Origin: a virus
Lineage: Duplodnaviria > Caudoviricetes
Virus record (IMG/VR): IMGVR_UViG_3300044971_001316
Span: 1-27,176 of that record
Length of the DNA: 27,176 nucleotides
Reading direction: 5' to 3' (one strand)
The position numbers and the translations under genes were made by a program. Position 1 is the stretch's first letter. Each line of letters opens with the position of its first letter. Below the pieces are notes generated by a model that saw nothing but the letters and a program-made list of their open reading frames with translations, made no database searches and had not been told where the DNA came from. Below, one piece after another: positions 2 through 10,180 of this stretch.

Positions 2-3000
2 GTTGAGCGCACCGCCCCACTCGCCCTTGCGGTTGAAGTTGGTCGTGCCGTCCTTGGCCAGCAGCGCTGCCTGAGTCGGCGTCTTGCCCACCTCCCGCGC
101 CGCCTGGTACAGGGCAAAGCGGGTGGCGTTCTCGGAGGCAGAGCCCATGAACTCCAGCATGCGCGCAGTCAGCGTGGCCAGCTTGTAGGGTGGCAGGGAC
201 TTGATCGCCTCAAAGGTGTTCTTCGACTTGGCCCCGGCCAGCAGCATCTCGTTGCGCAGGTCCTTGTTGATGTCATCCAGCGAGCGCATGTAGAAGCCGC
301 CCGTGATGGAGCCCGCGTTGCGGAACTCTTGGAACCGCTGGTCCATCTGCTGGTTGCCGATGATCTTGTTGGCCGTGCCGCCGATGCCAGCTTCCTGGCG
401 GGCGGATGCCATCAGCGCCTTGCCGTAGTTGGCCAGGTACTTGGCCAGGCCCTTGGGTCCCAGCTCAGCCAATGCTGCGGACGTGCCCGACCACAGCGCA
501 TCGCGTGGGATGTTGATCGCAGCGAACGCTGGGTTGTAGCGGGTCAGGACGTTGCGCAGCCAGTTGTTCCACCAGCCCGACACCGCCAGTGTGGCGCGCT
601 CCAGGCCGCTGGTCTCGTCCTTCCAGGCCTGGCGGATGGCGCGGGCCAGCTCGGGGTCTGCCAGCTTGATGTAGACCTGCTGGCCGCCGACCTTGACGCC
701 GATGGTGTCCTCACCCTTTTCGATGGACTTGGTGTACTGCACGGTGCCCGTGGCCTTGTTGAACGCAGGCTTGTTGCGCTCGACGTCCACGCCCCACAGG
801 TCTGGGTCAGGGTTCGACAGCACGAAGTCCAGCAGGACCTTGCCCACGTCGTTCTTCTCGACCCGCATGATCACGCGCTGGTAGTCGCGGATCACGTTTT
901 CGATCAGGTCGCTGGCCTGGGACTTGCGGCCCATGGCGCGGATGGTCTCGCCGCCGCGCACGTTGATGCCACGGCCGATGCCTGGGCGCATTGCGCCGGT
1001 GTTCTCGTCCACGTTCTCCAGGCCACGCAGGGGGATGTAGTTCTCGTAGGCACCGTCGAGTGCGTCGAACTCATCCTGCGTGATCAGGCCCTCGGCCAGC
1101 ATGACCTGGCGGGTGGTTGATGTGATCGCCATCAGGTCGCGGTGCAGCTCTTCAAACTTCGCCTCGTCGCCGGACGCCTTGGCCAACTGCAGGATGCTCT
1201 TGGCGTGGGCGTCGGTCATGCCGGAGCCGCCGTCGGGCATGCGCTTGTTAATGCTGGCGATGTAGGCGTTGCGCTCCTCGGCGTGCTTGGCGTAGGAGTA
1301 CAGCGCCAGCTCGTCCAGGTCGATGCCAAAGCCCACGGCCTTGTCGATCAGCGGACGCATGACGTTGTCACGGAAGTCGTCCATCGCTGCCTGAATGCGG
1401 CCAGGCATCAGGGTGTTGGCGTCGTAGAAGTTCTGAGCCTCGCTGACTTTGCTGCCCTTCTTGGCCTCGACTGCTTCGATGACGCGCTTCATGCGCAGGC
1501 CGTCGTCCTGCAGCTTGATGCGGGCAGCGTCGACCTTGCCCGTGGCGGGCAGTTCAAAGGTGCTGCCGATCAGCTTCTGGCGGCGGTTGCTTGTGCGAAC
1601 TTCGGGGGTGGCCACGCTTTTCGCTTTGTCGGCAGCGCGGTTGCTGAACATCGGCAGGCCCTGACCCACGGTCTCGCGCATCTTGTCGGTGACGTCGAAG
1701 CCGGGTTGCTGAGAGACCTCTGGGTTTCTTTCATCAATCAGTTCAGCGTTCTTGCCGTCTTCCAACAGCTCTGCAAGCTCCTGACGTGCAACGCCCTCAT
1801 CGCTGTAGCCGTTGTACTCACGACCATCGACATTGATGACCCATTGCACAGCACCGGCCGGCGTCTTTTCACCGTTGCCAACTGGCAGCGGCACACCAAC
1901 GGAGCCGAGCTTCTCGCCACCCAGCTTCGGCAACAGCTTTGTGATAGCTTGCGGGACGATCTGGTCGTAGAAGGCCTTCATGCCTTCGCCTCCGACTTTG
2001 ATGTCTTCGCCGTCAAGGAGGTGCTTGCCCATCACCAAAGGCTGCGCCAGCAAACGCTTTGCGACTTCCTTGCCGACGTAGTCCTCAAGCTGTGACTCGT
2101 CAGTAATCTCGCGCCTCATCACTTTGCGACGGTTGTTATCCCATGCGTCAAGGAGCTTTTCCTCTGGGCTGTATGCGATGGACTGGATCTGCTTGCTCAG
2201 GTCATACCGGTCAGCAGACTGCTCGCCATTGACGAACGCGACCTTGTCGTAGCCACCCTCCACCGCCATCATGGCGATGCGCTTGAGCGCCAGGTTGAGC
2301 CAGCCCTCGGTCTTACCAATGAACGGCGCGGCGGGCACGCCCTTCATCAGAGCGCCCATGCGATCGGCGGCTTTCATCACCGCGTCTTTGGTGCCGAATG
2401 CGCGAGGGAGGCTGTAGCCATCCTCTTTCAGATGAAAGAAGCCCGGCTCTTGTTCAACTATTTTCCAACCAGTCTTGAGCGTATCGCCAGTGCCCTCCTT
2501 CTTTGCGGTTTGACCCCAGTCGGACTGCACCTCTTCCACGAACAGCACGCGCTTGCCGTCGGCATCGGTGCGGTCGTTGATGCGGATATGGGCGAGGACG
2601 TTCTTCTCATCCCAGTGGCTGGACCTGTAGTTGTCGGTGCGCTTTTGCGGCGGCGCTTTCTCAAGCGCATCAACCTCTTTGCGCAGGTTGTCTGCCTTGA
2701 CCTGGAACTGTGCTGCTTTCTCGCTTAGGCCGAGGCCAGCGAACTCGCTAACCATTTCTTCCATCGCTTGCAGCCGCTTGCGCGTGCCTTCAAGTCTGAT
2801 CTGCTGGTTGCCAGTCACCTCAGGCAGCGTGATCAGCAGCTCGCGGTAGTTCTCGCCGCCGGGCAAGGTGTACTTGCCGTACTTGGTGTCGTCAGCATCC
2901 TCGTCGAGCATGCCTTCCAGTTCATCCAGAATCTCCTCGCGGCTCATGGCCTCACCGTTTGCCTCTGGCGCGTAGCCGCGAATGCGGGTGTACTCCTTGA

Positions 3001-6000
3001 CTACCTGCGCGTCATCCATTGCGCTGAAGTCTTTGATGTCGCCAAGCATTTGCTCGGACACCCTCACACCTGAGTCAGCCAAGTAGGCCTGCAGCTCTGC
3101 GCTGGTGACCTTGTCCTTGCCACGCAGGGTGAGGTAGTCCTTGATGCCGGACCACTCCATCTCGTCTTTCTTGACGCCCTGCTTCGGACCATTGGAGTCC
3201 AGCCACAGTGCCCACTGGGAGGCAGGCTGCGTGGCCAGCTTCGCGGGCACGTTGGCGATCGTGCGCTCCAACTGGCTGTAGAACGCAGGCTTGGCTCGGT
3301 TGCTAAACATTGGCATGTCGCCCACACGGCCCTCGGTCCATGCCCACTCAGGCAGGAGCCCAGTCTTCTGGTCGGCAAACACGGTGTCCTCGACCTTGGC
3401 GGTGCGGTTGCTCTCGCCGGTGGGGCCGTAGTTCAGCCAGGAGTTCTGGCCGCGTGTCTCGCTGGTGATGGCCGCCACTGCGCTGCCAGTGAACAGACGG
3501 ACGTGAGCCTGCCAGGCATTCTCTTCGCCCTGGGCGCGGAAGCCGGAGCCCTCAAGCCCATGGCCGAAGGCATCATGCACGGCACGGAACAAGTCGTTGG
3601 CCAGCACGCGCTTGCGTGGGCCGAACAATGAGCCCGATGGCCACTTGATGCCGGTGTCTTCCAGCAGCGGGTTGCTGGCCGGGTCAAAGTCACCCGAACC
3701 GAAACCGTCGTCGGTTGGGAACACGCCCATGACCTTGTTTGCGCGGATGTCGCGCATCGCATTCCAGGGGCTGGATGCGTACTCTTGGTTGTCGGGCTTG
3801 TCGAGATTGATAAACCAGAACTTGTAGCCCGCCTTCTCCAAGGCGCGGTACTGCGCAAGGGTCTGCGCGATCAGTTCTTTGTAGGCCGCCTTGACGCGCA
3901 GATCCTGCGGCGCATGAGGCATGGCCTCGTAGGCCTCGGCAATGCGTGCGGCACGCTCAGGGTCGACCTGGGCGTACTCGGCTTGGCGGCGCAGCTCAAT
4001 GCCATTGTCGCGGGCATACTGCTCGGCCACCGCAACGAGGCGGGGGTCTGGACCAGTGAAGCCGCGAACAGTTGGAGCACCTGGCAGCGCCTCGTTTGCA
4101 CTCAGTCCTCGGACTGCTTGCGCATCTGCTCGTTCTGGTGCTTGAACCTGGCGATCCTGCGCGCCCCCAGCTCCTTGCCCTCGGCTTCCGTCTCCGGCGC
4201 GTTGGCTGAATCGGAGTTGGCCTGCATCGCCCCAGCCGTATTTGTCTGCGTACTCGTCGAAGACTTGCTGGACTCGGGGCGCGAGAACAGCTCTGGCCCA
4301 GTAGAGAACATCGGATCGTCCTTCGGCACCAATCCTTTGTACGTAGCTTTCCCCATTTGGGCTCTCCTTCCAGTTGTTCGTTGGCATGTCGCCGCTTGAG
4401 GCAAACACGCGATACTCAAAATCGGGCAGCACAGACTCCGCCACCTTGACGATGTCGGACTGCAGCTTTTCATTTGTGATGATACCAAAATTCACAACCC
4501 TTATACCATTGGGCGAGCTGACAAACGCAAATTTGTCTTGCCATTCTGGGTGGCCGTTGTCGACCATCCAGTCGCCCACGGCAGTCTCAAGGTCTGCCAC
4601 TTCGCGGGGGTTGAGGGTGCGCCCGACGTTGATGTCGAGGCCGTTGGCGTCACGCTTTGTGCTTGAGTAGAACGGACGGTGCCAGCCCACGCCCTCTTGG
4701 CGGGCCACCAGGCCAGCCACAGCGGCGTAAATGTTGAGTGCCGTGGCCTGGGCTGGGTCGACGTTGGTCTTGCCTTCCGTGCCCTTTGCGGGGGCCATGG
4801 CCACATTGAGCTGGGTGCTCGGCGAGACCTCGCCTTGCCACACGCCGGGAGCCAGGATGTCGCTGTCCACCAGCAAGCCCAAGTACGCCGCCAGCTCATC
4901 GGTGCCGCGCTCGTTATAAAACGCCTTCTGCACAGCCTGCTGGAACTCCACCTGCTGCGCATAGGGTGCGCTGTGGATGCCAGGCAGGACGGCGCTGGTG
5001 CGACCAGGGCGAGCCTCAAAAGACACCTGACCGATGTGACGCATCAGGCCATCGCCGAAGTCAAACTTCGCCTGCTGCGTGTCGTCTTTGGTGACGTCGT
5101 GAGCAAACGAATACTTGAGCCAGTTGTCGCGGTGCTTTTGCTCGTCGAGGATGACGCGGACCTTGCCTTTGCCATCCTTGCCGGGCACGAACTTGATCCA
5201 GCCTTTCTTTTCGCTGGTGCGCTCGGTCTCTTTCTTGACGCCTTTGTTCTCCATGCGGGCCTTCATGGCCACCCAGATCGCGGCCTGCACCTGCTGCGGC
5301 TCCCAGCCCAGCTCCCTGGCCAAGCGGTTGGTTTCGTTCTCCATGAACGAGTACTGGGTGTTTGAGGGCGCGTCGGTTTCGTACTGACCCGCACGCATCA
5401 TCCACATGTCGATCGTGGCACCTTGCTTGCCTGCGGTCGATGGGTCGATCTCACGCAGCAGGTTGAAGAAGAAGTTGCCCGTCTTCTCGCCGGACCAGAA
5501 TGCGTCGACATCGTCGAGCGCGCCCTTGGCCTTGGTGTCCATGACCTCGGTCTTCACGCTGATCGGCTGGCCAGCCTTGTACTGTGCCCATGCGCGCAGC
5601 GCAAACGTGGAGTTGGCGTCGACCTTCGCTTGTGGCGAGTAGATGGCCAGCAGTGCCACGAACTTGCGAGCCTCCTGCATATCGCCGCCCACCATCTTGA
5701 GCACAGCTTTGCCGCTGTTCTCGTACCAGTAGCGGCCTGGCGCGCCCTCGTCTGCGAGCTGGCGCAGGATCTTGCGCAGCGTCGGGATCTTGCCGGGCGT
5801 GTTGAACTTCTCGGGGGCACCCAAGTACTTGCCGTTTTTCATCGGCAGCTTCTCGGTCACCTCTCCGCCTCGGCTGTACGCCACCTGGCGGCCTTCAAGA
5901 GCTGCGCGCACGCGAGGTGCTGCGGCGTTGGTGAAGACGATGCCGTCCTTTGTGACTCGACCCTTGACGTCGTCAGGGACCTGAGCACGGATCTGCTCGG

Positions 6001-9000
6001 GGTCGCCGTAGACGACCATCGTGCCGTCCTTCATAGTGCGCACGTCGAACTCGCCAGCAGCAGTGGTGCCTCGGCGGGACATCCTAATGTCCGGGTTTGC
6101 CGGGTCGAAGATGCCGCTGTTGCCAGTGGCAGACTTGATCTGCTCGGGTCGGAAAACCAAATACTCGCGGAAGGGGCTTCGGCCAACAAGCCCGTCGCTC
6201 ATGCGCGTGATGGCGTCGAATCCTGCCGCTTTATAAATCGACTCGATCACCGACATCGGGCCTCCTTCAATCGCGAGCCAAAGTGACTTCGGATTGAATG
6301 TGCGTGATGCCAAGACTTTTTTGAGATCGCGCTCAATAAACTCTTTTGAGTCGATGGCAAGCTCTTGCGGGTAACCAAGGCTCACCAACTCTTGTATGTT
6401 TTTTGGTATGGCAGACTTGATTGCAGCAAGCTGATCGTCTGTGATGTTGTCCGCATCAAGAATGTTTTCGGCCTTGATATACACGGGCAAGACATTCATG
6501 TCCTCTTCTTTGCGCTCGGCAAAGCGAGATGCTGCATCTGCGTCGTCGGTGAAGTAAATGCCTTCTCCAAGGCTTCCTCCATCGGATGGTTTGAACGCGG
6601 TGATGTCGGCACCAGTCCCGTGATAGACCACCATTGGCTTGCCAGCGTCATCCACAACCTTAGAGTTGCCGAAGAACTTCTTGAACTCAGGCGTCTCAGG
6701 AGCAGCGCGGTTGGATGCCATCGGCTGAGCATCACTCACCAGTGCAACGTCGGGCGTCAGGCCCTGAGCCTGCATCGACTCAGCGTAGGCCGTGCTCAGC
6801 AGGTCGCGGGCCTTGGCCACGTCGGTGATGTACTTGCTGACGAACTCGTCGCCGTACTGCTCCTTGGCACCGCTGATGATCGTGTTCAGTTTGGCCAAGA
6901 TGGTCTTGGCCACCTCGCCAAACTCTGCGTTGCCCATCTTCGTGCGCAGGTCCTGCCAGAAGTCTTCGCGCTTGCTGATCGCTTGGACCATGAACGCGGG
7001 AATCTCCTCGTCCAGCAGCGCATCGTTCTTTGCGTCGTAATCGAACTCCTCTGCAAACTCAGTGCGGCGATCTTGACGGAAGTACTGGGCCAACTGCGTG
7101 TTGAGCGCCTTGCGCTGTGGCTCGGGCAGCGTGTGATAGATCTCGTGCATCGCGACCGACAGCGGCGCGTCATCCGCATCGTTGGCAACGAAGATGTTCT
7201 TGCTGTCGCCGGGCAGCATGAACCCGTTGGGCAGCGATGCTGGGGTGTCCGCTTTCAGGTAGGTGACCGTGCGGCCAAGCAGGCGGGCGACCGCGCTGGC
7301 AGCCTGCTGCTGCTCTGTCAGCGGCGCGGTGTCCACCTCGGCATCGACGCCGGTGCTGGCGCTGAGCGTCGTGATGGCCTTGCCGATGGCGCGCAGGGGC
7401 GCGGGCGGGGCGAGCCTGAGTGAGGTCTTCAGGCCAGCAGTTGCAGCACCCTCTGGCGTACCAAGGGCTCCAGGTCGCTGAGCTTGAGCGTTGGGTCCAG
7501 TCGCCACTGAACTGACCCCAACGTCTCCTCCGCTTTGCGCCTGCGCTGCACTTCTGCTTGCCAGCGGCTGAAGTACTCCTGCGCTTGTTGCTCCACTGAT
7601 GGCAGATGCTTGCTGTCCTTGCGTTTGGCCTTGGAGGGCTTGAGGGGTTTGAGTGCCAAGGGTCGTCTCCGTTGGTTTGATGACCCAGCCACCGTCCATC
7701 TTGACAGTGCTGTAGCCGGTGATGCCGTTCTGCTGCGCATAGACGGCGGCGGTTTGTTGGGTGCTGAAAGGCTTGCCGCTGGGAGCGGTGATCGGCTCAG
7801 CGGCGGGTGCAGCCTGCGTCGGCTGGGTAACCCCGGCCCCTGTCTCCATGGTGCCCACAGTGGGAGCAGGCTGCGTATTCTGTTGCTCGTATCCGGCCAA
7901 GCGGAACTTCCCGCTGGGCATCTGCTCCACGCTCCATTCAAGGGAGGGGAACATGCGCTGGCGGCCAGGCAGGGCCTGCGCCGCGTCAGCCTCGGTCACG
8001 TAGCCGTCGCCCTTGCGGCCGACCCACTGCTCAACCGGCTGGACTACAGCATTGTTATTTTCTGGGGCCGCGATGGCAGCCTCGGTGCGCGCCAGCAGAT
8101 CCTGGTCGGTGGCACGGGGTGAGACTCGCGGCAGCGTCAGGCTGGCAGCCTGTTGTCCGCCTGCACTTCCAGCAGGAACATTCGCCCCAGCATTGGCTGC
8201 AGGCAGTCCGGCATTTCCACCAGCGAGTTGTCCGGTGCCAGCAGCATCAAGTCCTGGAATGCCCAGGCCTCCGCCACGCTGATCGCTCGCTGGGAAACCG
8301 CCCACTGCAGGCGCGGCTCCAGCTCCGCCAAGTGTGCTGACATCGGTCGTCTCCGAACGGTTGGGGATAGGCACCACGATCGGCACCAGACCGGCTTCAT
8401 CGGTCGGGCTGCCTGCAGGGGTGAAGTTGATCTCTCGCGCTGGCGCGGAAGGCCCGACGTCCGCAGCCCGGCGCATCGTCTGCTCGGGGCTGATCAGGGT
8501 GGGGTCGTAGCTGTTGACGTCGAAGAGCCCAACCGCCTGGCGCTCTGCCGCGAAGTCGGGTGCTTGCGCTGCGCGGGCCTCTTGGTACTGGCTGGCTGCG
8601 CCGACCGCGCTGAATGGCGCAGAGGTGACGAGCGCAGTGGCCATCGCCTCGGGAACGCCTTCAGATAGCTTCTGGCTTGGGTCGACCGTGCGCGAGATGA
8701 CGTTGCCGCCAAACTGTGTGCCGCCCTCTTCAAGCTGCTCGCCGATCACGTCCTTGGCCAGCATCTTGCCAGCGCCTGCAACTGTCAGCGCCTCGGCTGT
8801 GGCGCGGCCCAGGCCCCTGGAAGCCACGGCGGCCTCGGCCCCCATGAACCCCAGCAAGCCCAGAGGAGCGGTCACCAGCGCGGCCATACGGGCCTTGGCG
8901 GTGGCAATCTCCACGATTGCTTGCTCGCTTGTCTTACCGCTGGCCACCAACTCTTGGTAGTCAGGGTTCTCTTGCCAAACGCTTAGGGGCGTTTGCCTTG

Positions 9001-10180
9001 GGTCGGTCAGCTTGTCGTACACGCCACCGGCCGCGTCGCCGCCAGCCATGACCATGGACGCGCCGACACCACCAGCGGTTGTACCGGCAGCGCGTGCGCC
9101 TGCCTGAATGGCACCACCACTGATCGCCTCACCCAACGCAACTGTCGGGCTGGCACGGCCGACAAGGCCAACGCCGCCAGCCGAGGCAGCGCCAACCAGG
9201 CGGGATGCGCCAACGATGCCCAAGAAGTTGGGGATCTGCTTGACTGCCTCAGACAGCCCCAGCGCTGGGCTTGTGACAAGTTGCACCACGGTCGCGGCGT
9301 ACTTGTCGAGGAACCCGTCCTCGTTCTGCACGCGCTCACGCAACTGTTCGCGCTGTGCCTTGAGGACGTCAGACTCTTGGGCCTGCAGTTCCTTTTGTGT
9401 TTTTCTGAGCGTGCTGGCGATCTCACTGCTTGGGGCAATGATGTTGATCGGCAACTGCACCAAACCGACAGCGCCCTGGCTCAGGCTGGACAGCGTGTCC
9501 GCCGCCCACTCTCCTGCCGTGCGGAACTCGTCTGCCTTTTCGTCCCGAACAGCTTGAACAATTTCAGGCTTGTTGGCCGAATCGACGATGTCTGCAAAGC
9601 TCTTCTCGCCTCGGGCGTCCATCGCCTTGACGACTTTGTTGACCGTGGGGTCTTGGCTGGCCATCTGGCCACGGCTGCTGCGCACTGAGTCGGCTGCTGC
9701 GACAGCTTTCTGGCTGATTGGGCCAGCACCGTAGGACAAGCGCTTGTCGACTTCAGCCTGACGCTCTTGTGGCGTTGGCTCATAGCCGTCCATGACGCTC
9801 TTGAACTCTGGCTTCAAAGCAGCGCCAATGCTGGCAATCACTCCAGTCTTGGGCTTCTGCGATGTGGCTGAGCCACCGCCGATCCCCAGCGGGTCCACGG
9901 GCTTAGGCAGCGCAGACGACAGGCGAGCGATCAGGCCCGGCTTCTCGGGGGCCTTGTAGCGAGCTGCCAAGCGGGCAGTCTCGTCGCCGGTATCGGGCAC
10001 GGGGGCAAGAGTCTGCTGAGTGTCTGCCAGGAACTGGCCACGCACAGCTTCGACTTCATCCTCTGAGACCCGAGGCGCGACAACCTCATTGAAATACTGG
10101 TTGCGAGCCTCTTCTTGTTCGTCAAAGGAGAGGGCCTGGAATGCGGGGTTCGCCGCTACGTCAGACCATTTCATTGCCAT
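2..10180 (-). CDS. Giant phage ejection/DNA-transfer protein, large polyvalent protein type (>3390 aa, 3' end outside window)
   Basis: ATG at 10180, 3 nt after the TAA of the upstream gene. Manual translation and the absence of any closed ORF in this frame show it is open to the window edge. N-terminus MAMKWSDVAANPAFQALSFDEQEEARNQYFNEVVAPR resembles podophage DNA-transfer proteins. Internal motifs: HEIYH..EE (7133-7147, ~7005); VVYHGT..GIYFT..EYLVFRPEQIKSATGN (ART-PolyVal-like, ~6090-6700); HDAFGH (3560-3577); LFVEEVQSDW (~2520-2545); C-terminal HAEERN..YIPLRG..NIPRD..ENATRF..TNFNRKG typical of the region preceding LPD38. Confidence 0.92.
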   Translation of the reverse strand, partial: MAMKWSDVAANPAFQALSFDEQEEARNQYFNEVVAPRVSEDEVEAVRGQFLADTQQTLAPVPDTGDETARLAARYKAPEKPGLIARLSSALPKPVDPLGIGGGSATSQKPKTGVIASIGAALKPEFKSVMDGYEPTPQERQAEVDKRLSYGAGPISQKAVAAADSVRSSRGQMASQDPTVNKVVKAMDARGEKSFADIVDSANKPEIVQAVRDEKADEFRTAGEWAADTLSSLSQGAVGLVQLPINIIAPSSEIASTLRKTQKELQAQESDVLKAQREQLRERVQNEDGFLDKYAATVVQLVTSPALGLSEAVKQIPNFLGIVGASRLVGAASAGGVGLVGRASPTVALGEAISGGAIQAGARAAGTTAGGVGASMVMAGGDAAGGVYDKLTDPRQTPLSVWQENPDYQELVASGKTSEQAIVEIATAKARMAALVTAPLGLLGFMGAEAAVASRGLGRATAEALTVAGAGKMLAKDVIGEQLEEGGTQFGGNVISRTVDPSQKLSEGVPEAMATALVTSAPFSAVGAASQYQEARAAQAPDFAAERQAVGLFDVNSYDPTLISPEQTMRRAADVGPSAPAREINFTPAGSPTDEAGLVPIVVPIPNRSETTDVSTLGGAGAAPAVGGFPASDQRGGGLGIPGLDAAGTGQLAGGNAGLPAANAGANVPAGSAGGQQAASLTLPRVSPRATDQDLLARTEAAIAAPENNNAVVQPVEQWVGRKGDGYVTEADAAQALPGRQRMFPSLEWSVEQMPSGKFRLAGYEQQNTQPAPTVGTMETGAGVTQPTQAAPAAEPITAPSGKPFSTQQTAAVYAQQNGITGYSTVKMDGGWVIKPTETTLGTQTPQALQGQTQGQQASAISGATSAGVLQPLASRSAAQAQSGGDVGVSSVATGPNAQAQRPGALGTPEGAATAGLKTSLRLAPPAPLRAIGKAITTLSASTGVDAEVDTAPLTEQQQAASAVARLLGRTVTYLKADTPASLPNGFMLPGDSKNIFVANDADDAPLSVAMHEIYHTLPEPQRKALNTQLAQYFRQDRRTEFAEEFDYDAKNDALLDEEIPAFMVQAISKREDFWQDLRTKMGNAEFGEVAKTILAKLNTIISGAKEQYGDEFVSKYITDVAKARDLLSTAYAESMQAQGLTPDVALVSDAQPMASNRAAPETPEFKKFFGNSKVVDDAGKPMVVYHGTGADITAFKPSDGGSLGEGIYFTDDADAASRFAERKEEDMNVLPVYIKAENILDADNITDDQLAAIKSAIPKNIQELVSLGYPQELAIDSKEFIERDLKKVLASRTFNPKSLWLAIEGGPMSVIESIYKAAGFDAITRMSDGLVGRSPFREYLVFRPEQIKSATGNSGIFDPANPDIRMSRRGTTAAGEFDVRTMKDGTMVVYGDPEQIRAQVPDDVKGRVTKDGIVFTNAAAPRVRAALEGRQVAYSRGGEVTEKLPMKNGKYLGAPEKFNTPGKIPTLRKILRQLADEGAPGRYWYENSGKAVLKMVGGDMQEARKFVALLAIYSPQAKVDANSTFALRAWAQYKAGQPISVKTEVMDTKAKGALDDVDAFWSGEKTGNFFFNLLREIDPSTAGKQGATIDMWMMRAGQYETDAPSNTQYSFMENETNRLARELGWEPQQVQAAIWVAMKARMENKGVKKETERTSEKKGWIKFVPGKDGKGKVRVILDEQKHRDNWLKYSFAHDVTKDDTQQAKFDFGDGLMRHIGQVSFEARPGRTSAVLPGIHSAPYAQQVEFQQAVQKAFYNERGTDELAAYLGLLVDSDILAPGVWQGEVSPSTQLNVAMAPAKGTEGKTNVDPAQATALNIYAAVAGLVARQEGVGWHRPFYSSTKRDANGLDINVGRTLNPREVADLETAVGDWMVDNGHPEWQDKFAFVSSPNGIRVVNFGIITNEKLQSDIVKVAESVLPDFEYRVFASSGDMPTNNWKESPNGESYVQRIGAEGRSDVLYWARAVLAPRVQQVFDEYADKYGWGDAGQLRFSQRAGDGSRGQGAGGAQDRQVQAPERADAQAVRGLSANEALPGAPTVRGFTGPDPRLVAVAEQYARDNGIELRRQAEYAQVDPERAARIAEAYEAMPHAPQDLRVKAAYKELIAQTLAQYRALEKAGYKFWFINLDKPDNQEYASSPWNAMRDIRANKVMGVFPTDDGFGSGDFDPASNPLLEDTGIKWPSGSLFGPRKRVLANDLFRAVHDAFGHGLEGSGFRAQGEENAWQAHVRLFTGSAVAAITSETRGQNSWLNYGPTGESNRTAKVEDTVFADQKTGLLPEWAWTEGRVGDMPMFSNRAKPAFYSQLERTIANVPAKLATQPASQWALWLDSNGPKQGVKKDEMEWSGIKDYLTLRGKDKVTSAELQAYLADSGVRVSEQMLGDIKDFSAMDDAQVVKEYTRIRGYAPEANGEAMSREEILDELEGMLDEDADDTKYGKYTLPGGENYRELLITLPEVTGNQQIRLEGTRKRLQAMEEMVSEFAGLGLSEKAAQFQVKADNLRKEVDALEKAPPQKRTDNYRSSHWDEKNVLAHIRINDRTDADGKRVLFVEEVQSDWGQTAKKEGTGDTLKTGWKIVEQEPGFFHLKEDGYSLPRAFGTKDAVMKAADRMGALMKGVPAAPFIGKTEGWLNLALKRIAMMAVEGGYDKVAFVNGEQSADRYDLSKQIQSIAYSPEEKLLDAWDNNRRKVMRREITDESQLEDYVGKEVAKRLLAQPLVMGKHLLDGEDIKVGGEGMKAFYDQIVPQAITKLLPKLGGEKLGSVGVPLPVGNGEKTPAGAVQWVINVDGREYNGYSDEGVARQELAELLEDGKNAELIDERNPEVSQQPGFDVTDKMRETVGQGLPMFSNRAADKAKSVATPEVRTSNRRQKLIGSTFELPATGKVDAARIKLQDDGLRMKRVIEAVEAKKGSKVSEAQNFYDANTLMPGRIQAAMDDFRDNVMRPLIDKAVGFGIDLDELALYSYAKHAEERNAYIASINKRMPDGGSGMTDAHAKSILQLAKASGDEAKFEELHRDLMAITSTTRQVMLAEGLITQDEFDALDGAYENYIPLRGLENVDENTGAMRPGIGRGINVRGGETIRAMGRKSQASDLIENVIRDYQRVIMRVEKNDVGKVLLDFVLSNPDPDLWGVDVERNKPAFNKATGTVQYTKSIEKGEDTIGVKVGGQQVYIKLADPELARAIRQAWKDETSGLERATLAVSGWWNNWLRNVLTRYNPAFAAINIPRDALWSGTSAALAELGPKGLAKYLANYGKALMASARQEAGIGGTANKIIGNQQMDQRFQEFRNAGSITGGFYMRSLDDINKDLRNEMLLAGAKSKNTFEAIKSLPPYKLATLTARMLEFMGSASENATRFALYQAAREVGKTPTQAALLAKDGTTNFNRKGEWGGALN
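4102..4356 (-). CDS. Overprinted small protein, 84 aa (MGKATYKGLVPKDDPMFSTGPELFSRP...), in +1 frame of the giant ORF
   Basis: Strong SD GAAGGAGAG-cccaa-ATG. The last ~32 codons almost all end in G/C, while the host frame uses rare codons (GTA, AGG, GGA, CGA, AGA) over the overlap. Confidence 0.62.
   Translation of the reverse strand: MGKATYKGLVPKDDPMFSTGPELFSRPESSKSSTSTQTNTAGAMQANSDSANAPETEAEGKELGARRIARFKHQNEQMRKQSED
7429..7659 (-). CDS. Overprinted small basic helical protein, 76 aa (TTG start; MALKPLKPSKAKRKDSKH...RVLQLLA), in +1 frame of the giant ORF
   Basis: SD-containing CGGAGACGACCc directly before TTG at 7659. Protein-like helical sequence with GC3-rich codons; the host frame here is a low-complexity Q/G/A/S linker. 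Confidence 0.62.
   Translation of the reverse strand: MALKPLKPSKAKRKDSKHLPSVEQQAQEYFSRWQAEVQRRRKAEETLGSVQWRLDPTLKLSDLEPLVRQRVLQLLA
8137..8343 (-). CDS. Overprinted small acidic/hydrophobic protein, 68 aa (MSAHLAELEPRLQWAVSQRAISVAEAWAFQD...), in +1 frame of the giant ORF
   Basis: SD-containing CGGAGACGACCg directly before ATG at 8343. Codon usage (CTG, GAG, CAG, GCG, GAC) matches the phage's real genes; the host frame degenerates to a G/A-rich linker (GGAGAAPAVGG...AGSAGG). Confidence 0.7.
   Translation of the reverse strand: MSAHLAELEPRLQWAVSQRAISVAEAWAFQDLMLLAPDNSLVEMPDCLQPMLGRMFLLEVQADNRLPA

Follow-up and report, generated by a model that had tools for sequence, protein, structure and literature searches.

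Evidence for a conserved gene for a short basic peptide nested within a giant phage gene

The window, i.e., the whole stretch of 27,176 nucleotides that was analysed, is a linear phage fragment of an estimated 52% completeness whose closest DNA matches come from lake metagenomes. Besides tail, lysis and acetyltransferase genes, as recognised in Pfam and PHROGs searches, it carries one giant gene, and the question arises whether a second protein (gene B) is encoded in the +1 frame of this gene and what such a protein would do. From our point of view B is almost certainly a real gene, and its translation very likely begins at a Shine-Dalgarno sequence and TTG codon of its own, since its lysine-rich first 14 – 18 residues and the start signal recur at hundreds of comparable phage sites. 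The features concerned are the following, in positions of the window:

2..10180, minus strand: host giant gene (open reading frame 10180..2, at least 3393 aa, running off the end of the window)
6761..7429, minus strand: HExxH domain of the host protein, following B immediately, with H, E and H invariant in 15 sequences
7429..7659, minus strand: nested gene B, encoding 76 aa in the +1 frame of the host gene, from a TTG start to a TGA stop at 7431-7429
7432..7605, minus strand: optional helical tail of B, codons 19-76, with helices predicted at 22-47 and 65-75
7606..7659, minus strand: conserved basic core of B, codons 1-18, net charge +6, predicted to be disordered
7660..7941, minus strand: upstream part of the 170-codon open reading frame, a shadow of the host frame outside gene B
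7667..7670, minus strand: Shine-Dalgarno GGAG of B, 7 nt before the start
8137..8343, minus strand: nested gene A, 68 aa, acidic, +1 frame like B, ATG start after the GGAGACGACC leader

The giant gene and the boundaries of gene B

The host protein starts with a DNA ejection protein-like part, of which the first 54 residues match the DNA ejection protein of Xylella phage Xfas53, followed by the HExxH domain, ART-PolyVal (E 2e-23) and DUF7178, the latter two both matched in Pfam. For the HExxH region (6761..7429) Pfam returned zero matches, and we infer that the domain is zincin-like. Giant size, several conflict domains in one polypeptide, among them ART-PolyVal and an HExxH domain, and a setting in the late virion region are likewise features of the polyvalent proteins as far as the accessible part of their description goes (Iyer et al., 2017; PMC5512222), and the host protein fits this group. 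Short motifs of the type M/F-S-N/Q/R-R are repeated at its domain borders (residues ~1153, 1366, 1990, 2291 and 2845) and are possibly processing or recombination marks.

Over gene B the host protein consists of a linker (residues 841-917) in which A, G, S, T, Q and P make up 79% of the residues vs 44% in the whole protein, and whose entropy is the 11th lowest among 3316 windows of the protein. The low-complexity linker that the first-pass annotation had described here is thus present, as is the GGAG followed after 7 nt by the TTG at 7659 that shares its frame with the 7429..7941 open reading frame, all on the minus strand. B consequently has a start codon, a Shine-Dalgarno sequence and a stop of its own that lie wholly inside another reading frame. 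Its length is unremarkable, as 17 of the 71 stop-to-stop runs in the +1 frame of the giant gene have at least 76 codons, and the case for B hence rests on conservation.

The earlier claim that only the part after the TTG is real protein was borne out as well, because the frame upstream behaves as a shadow: one relative has a B-frame stop codon 12 codons before the TTG, and in a population contig from run X14 the 219 nt just upstream of the GGAG (window 7670-7890) are swapped for 12 nt with the host frame kept. A start of B at 7941 is unconserved and was rejected. Contigs from three other runs span B without indel. AlphaFold2 predicts B with a mean pLDDT of 77 and residues 1-21 without secondary structure. 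A search of 6800-8800 found no sigma-70-type promoter, RNA folds at the nested-gene starts are not stronger than those of shuffled sequences, and among the matches listed for the window DNA there is no RNA dataset.

Conservation of the start signal, the core and both frames

In a first search with B, 33 loci were obtained, and in each of them the same basic N-terminus lies in the +1 frame of an open reading frame of >1600 aa. We then scanned viral sequences with codons 1 (its TG) to 8 fixed and the first base left free. Among the 120 matches listed, 106 continue with S[KR] and were counted as family; removal of 14 non-family rows, four loci with short flanks and 12 duplicates left 90 distinct sites. 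Among these, the start is GTG in 42, TTG in 28, ATG in 20 and CTG in none, vs a C frequency of 39% in comparable host codons. An SD-like motif precedes 77 of the 90 listed family sites vs 106 of 1234 background NTG codons, with the weaker starts having the better motifs (TTG 28/28, GTG 39/42, ATG 10/20 among the matches listed). A host frame of at least 500 aa was found at 70 of the 71 long family loci and at none of the nine non-family matches listed.

The reciprocal scan, with codons 5-14 fixed and the start left free, was reduced by duplicates and short flanks from 120 to 103 viral and from 119 to 111 metagenome sites. Among the viral matches listed, ATG, GTG or TTG stands exactly four codons upstream in 100 of 103 sites, followed by A/S/P, L and K/R, and the host frame is open in 102 of 103; among the metagenome matches listed, the start codon is present in 110 of 111. 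Taken together, the scans give at least 243 distinct B-family sites, nearly all nested in giant genes, to be read with the provisos that part of the motif was fixed by construction, that the viral scans share contigs and that the sites are related, so that nominal P values overstate the strength of the case. GTG or TTG serves as start in 167 of the 243 sites, and the GGAR-to-start spacing is 6-7 nt in 192 of the 214 motif-bearing sites (both among the matches listed). Among 20 genome matches listed, 12 belong to the family, 11 of them in betaproteobacterial records, the other eight having been classed as non-family by eye. In addition, a 107-aa Cys-containing open reading frame (L147:300-620), which we take to be HNH-nuclease-like, shares the first eight residues of B, probably by chance.

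The N-terminus of the family reads MALKPLKPSKxKRK, with near-invariant L, P and S positions, and over this core the host-frame residues drift while the B-frame residues stay. Contigs from other lake runs match only 7616-7670, i.e., the Shine-Dalgarno sequence plus 15 codons, and a locus found through the host frame alone (L155) keeps the Shine-Dalgarno sequence, the TTG and the core in front of another tail. The median family length is 25 aa; most members have 21-30 aa, and 40 aa or more are reached in only 10 of 90 (among the matches listed). The tails fall into short Pro/Gln forms, forms of 41-51 aa, forms of 60-63 aa and the helical form of the window. The helical module is also found without the basic core, and a search for the loci of a tail-only homolog found none. 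As judged from these sequences, the unit of the B family is the core and not the helix. The first-pass annotation had proposed a basic helical protein of 76 aa; the length and a selected helical tail were confirmed, whereas the notion that the helical part is the protein fails on the short, tail-less majority, and the most conserved stretch is formed by the first 14-18 residues instead of the helical stretch.

Selection acts on the tail too. The 76-aa B has 20 protein homologs with 46-93% identity, and both frames are conserved in the family, dual-frame conservation being a check that the first-pass annotation had proposed. For the tail, a comparison of 10 pairs from 5 loci gave a pN/pS of 0.37-0.74 for the B frame vs 1.23-1.81 for the host frame, and the downstream control domain shows the reverse (0.16 in the host frame, 2.19 in the +1 frame). 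Among 12 population variants in B, seven are silent in B and three in the host, and none is a stop. At wobble positions where T would create a stop in the host frame, T is found in 0 of 882 cases vs 44 of 648 at safe positions (among the matches listed). Substitutions hence favour the nested frame, which is under purifying selection, and the host frame likewise stays free of stops.

At L335 and L314 the basic peptide occurs twice in one host linker, with one copy diverged. At L057 (near 4000) and L222 (near 2500), single-base frameshifts at or near B apparently split the host frame and are apparently assembly errors or broken genes. Programmed frameshifting was rejected, as a slippery heptamer is present in only 12 of 243 sites (among the matches listed) and the two cases look like single indels.

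Nested neighbours and candidate functions

Gene A, which shares the GGAGACGACC leader with B, is likely a companion of B. It is predicted to be three-helical, occurs at 26 loci and is under selection in its own frame (pN/pS 0.08-0.71, 6 pairs); Pfam and PHROGs gave no family match and Foldseek no fold match. Within 1500 nt upstream of B, an acidic nested open reading frame is present in 109 of 170 loci, namely A in 26 and a second family, S, in 83, never both, although the two families occur within the same host-gene clusters; their median charges are -6 or -5. The remaining 61 of the 170 loci have neither. Family S is the commonest nested neighbour and occupies the place of A:

L094:4051-4218, minus strand, and 82 other loci: family S, 55-60 aa, acidic, Shine-Dalgarno sequence in 82 of 83 loci

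Pfam and PHROGs searches with S gave nothing usable, and homology of A and S was rejected, none being detectable. The predicted complex of A and B scored 0.00 in two runs, which bears neither way. Further nested frames were noted in passing: a candidate gene C (window 4102-4356, minus strand; 84 aa, ATG with GGAG) with a single homolog of 49% identity in L078, and a further basic, Lys/Pro/Gln-rich family of 60-87 aa, located 94-217 codons upstream of B in L005, L007, L009, L031 and L213.

As to the function of B, we favour, at a probability of roughly 0.45, a late-made nucleic-acid-binding peptide of the head core, a reading that draws on analogy. B would be read from the late mRNA of a virion-protein gene, its working part would likely be the basic N-terminal 14-18 residues, and the Lys/Pro-rich peptide would bind or neutralise DNA while the head is filled or the giant protein is ejected, much like microvirus J/VP8; the helical tail would be a lineage-specific add-on. 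A charge of +6 within 18 residues without predicted fold favours nucleic-acid binding, and the setting among tail, lysis and ejection genes counts for such a role, as do the further copies of B in a P1-like dar region and, apparently, in a head-gene cluster. In the accessible part of the source, the J/VP8 proteins are small, Arg/Lys-rich and largely unstructured and bind DNA inside microvirus capsids (PMC11281519), to which the median of 25 aa (among the matches listed) and the core charge of B correspond. They differ in that they belong to ssDNA phages, are encoded by a free-standing gene and conserve a C-terminus that is buried in the capsid, whereas B conserves its N-terminus (PMC11281519). 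Membership of B in the J family was rejected, given the tailed-phage context and the lack of a PDB, Pfam or PHROG match. Three points speak against the core peptide: the strict L/P/S positions point to a specific binding site over charge neutralisation, the weak starts (GTG or TTG in 167 of 243 sites among the matches listed) are ill-suited to a high-copy structural role, and a general linkage to Hdf is lacking (0/21). Low expression of B, as suggested in the first-pass annotation, is plausible given the weak start codons, but it is these that have the better Shine-Dalgarno matches.

Searches with B in Pfam, PHROGs, PDB sequences, Foldseek and the ESM Atlas gave nothing usable. No Pfam family matched more than one of 74 family members, phrog_11051 gave a weak match in the family search and none to the window, and GenBank phages gave zero matches to B or to a short peptide. 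The N-terminus of B resembles, as we take it, that of the ribosomal proteins bL32/bL34. Mimicry of these proteins gained no support, as no PDB sequence, be it J/VP8, ribosomal or another solved protein, was matched at E up to 10 and the Pfam families went unmatched, in searches for which short low-complexity profiles are low-powered.

A wider proposal, which we regard as tentative, combines both nested genes into an engulfed two-gene +1 cassette in the first linker of giant ejection proteins. It would comprise an acidic protein of 55-68 aa from two interchangeable families and a basic peptide of 14-18 residues with swappable tails; the peptide, as a new ligand with sequence specificity, would either serve as a tag that takes small cargo domains to the head or inhibit a conserved machine of betaproteobacteria, and polyvalent linkers would largely be read-through of such cassettes.

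The main rival reading, less likely in our estimate, is that B is a host-directed peptide which engages a groove of the ribosome, of RNA polymerase or of a nucleoid or defence protein that reads a Pro/Lys motif, with the upstream A or S as partner or antidote. The strictly conserved L, P and S positions, the weak start codons and the mutually exclusive acidic neighbours in 109 of 170 loci would all suit this idea, and polyvalent proteins are described as serving in the conflict with the host (PMC5512222, accessible part). However, neither a ribosomal nor any other solved protein was matched at E up to 10 and no Pfam family by more than 1/74 members, the acidic neighbour is missing from 61 of 170 loci, A and S are not detectably homologous, and their co-occurrence with B is explicable by linkage.

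Still more doubtful is an action in cis, by which ribosomes that start at B, possibly slowed by the Lys/Pro peptide, would set the pace of translation, or put a limit on it, in the effector part further downstream in the giant gene. B does lie at the junction that follows the host protein's N-terminal part, about 450-1050 codons in, most tails are short and variable, and the strength of the Shine-Dalgarno sequence compensates that of the start codon. Yet folded tails are under purifying selection, the free-standing copies described below have no host gene around them, and frameshifting into the host frame is unconserved, with the heptamer in 12 of 243 sites among the matches listed.

The first-pass annotation had linked B to the polyprotein as a regulator, chaperone or inhibitor, and we consider it very unlikely that the helical protein acts in this way on the peptidase next to it or on some other module of the giant protein. 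Among the loci compared, all five with a helical tail precede this peptidase clade, as in the window, and the tail is selected and predicted to be helical. However, the tail is found in 5 and absent from 9 of the 14 loci with this clade, an HExxH motif follows 30-260 aa downstream of B in only 20 of 163 loci (within 400 aa in 79 of 163), and the downstream segments fall into 34 clusters. The constant linkage that an inhibitor or chaperone would be expected to show was thus not found, the proposed tie to the peptidase does not hold for the family, and co-inheritance of tail and peptidase is explained by adjacency alone.

Lastly, it is hardly credible that B is no gene and merely mirrors a conserved motif of the host linker or of the DNA, as the equally long +1-frame runs (17/71) and the low and uninformative ESM recognition would allow, since host residues drift while B residues stay, starts switch among ATG, GTG and TTG but never CTG, the Shine-Dalgarno spacing is tight and variants are mostly silent in B.

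Origin and relation to known systems

The N-terminal host parts in front of B fall into 11 unlinked clusters (155 loci). Outside giant genes, B was found inside a 166-codon open reading frame in L109, in what appears from our reading of unannotated frames to be a head-gene cluster, and as free-standing copies in L162 and L165, two contigs of one genome bin. The latter copies follow an Hdf-like gene and sit between it and a DarA-like gene, resembling the dar region of P1. In P1, DarA-Hdf has basic DNA-facing surfaces according to the accessible part of the source (PMC12810830). A fixed link between B and Hdf was rejected, as B directly follows an Hdf-like gene in 0 of 21 other related loci and the content of this slot varies.

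For overprinted genes, the accessible part of a review names a narrower distribution of the inner frame as the criterion (PMC8227390). The distribution of B is not the narrow one, without homologs elsewhere, of a de novo overprinted gene, and by this criterion B would be the older frame and the linker a read-through. The two free-standing copies suggest that a small gene existed first and was engulfed by the giant gene; they could also be escapes and derived instead. The giant gene may accordingly have grown by reading through an older small-gene cassette, which would make the linker the newer frame. As to the term "overprinted" in the first-pass annotation, the nesting with both frames conserved stands, whereas the direction may be reversed, B being under tighter constraint and more widespread than the host frame and having two free-standing copies.

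Embedded same-strand phage genes are well known, e.g., Rz1 within Rz of lambda, genes B, E and K of phiX174 and the lysis genes of single-gene lysis leviviruses. Like these, B is a complete +1-frame gene with its own start and with both frames under selection (PMC8227390, accessible part). It differs in that its outer frame is a drifting linker, that the constraint is stronger on the inner frame, that its hosts form 11 unlinked clusters and that a second nested gene lies beside it. The iddB gene of P1 is an annotated frame inside ddrB as well; it is antisense, whereas B lies on the same strand. Overlapping alternate-frame insertion (OAFI), as described in the accessible part of a preprint (10.1101/2024.11.07.622342), is synthetic, and B would be its natural counterpart. 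Nested genes as such are thus known, and an engineered equivalent exists. In the accessible main text on polyvalent proteins (PMC5512222), nested genes are not mentioned, and the words "overlap" and "linker" occur 0 times each; PMC3185693 held nothing relevant to B. In the literature searched, neither the B family nor any nesting of genes in polyvalent proteins is described, and small-gene catalogues and supplements, which lay outside the search, could list the peptide.

Overall, B represents a widespread family of phage microproteins, put at about 220-270 stretches by each of three scans and overlooked in annotation because its members are both tiny and nested. The family supports the view that polyvalent proteins lengthen when small genes are read through, such that their linkers would form a second coding layer. 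As carriers occur in records of cultured genera (Variovorax, Pseudacidovorax) and the core comprises only 20 residues, the function of B should be cheap to test.
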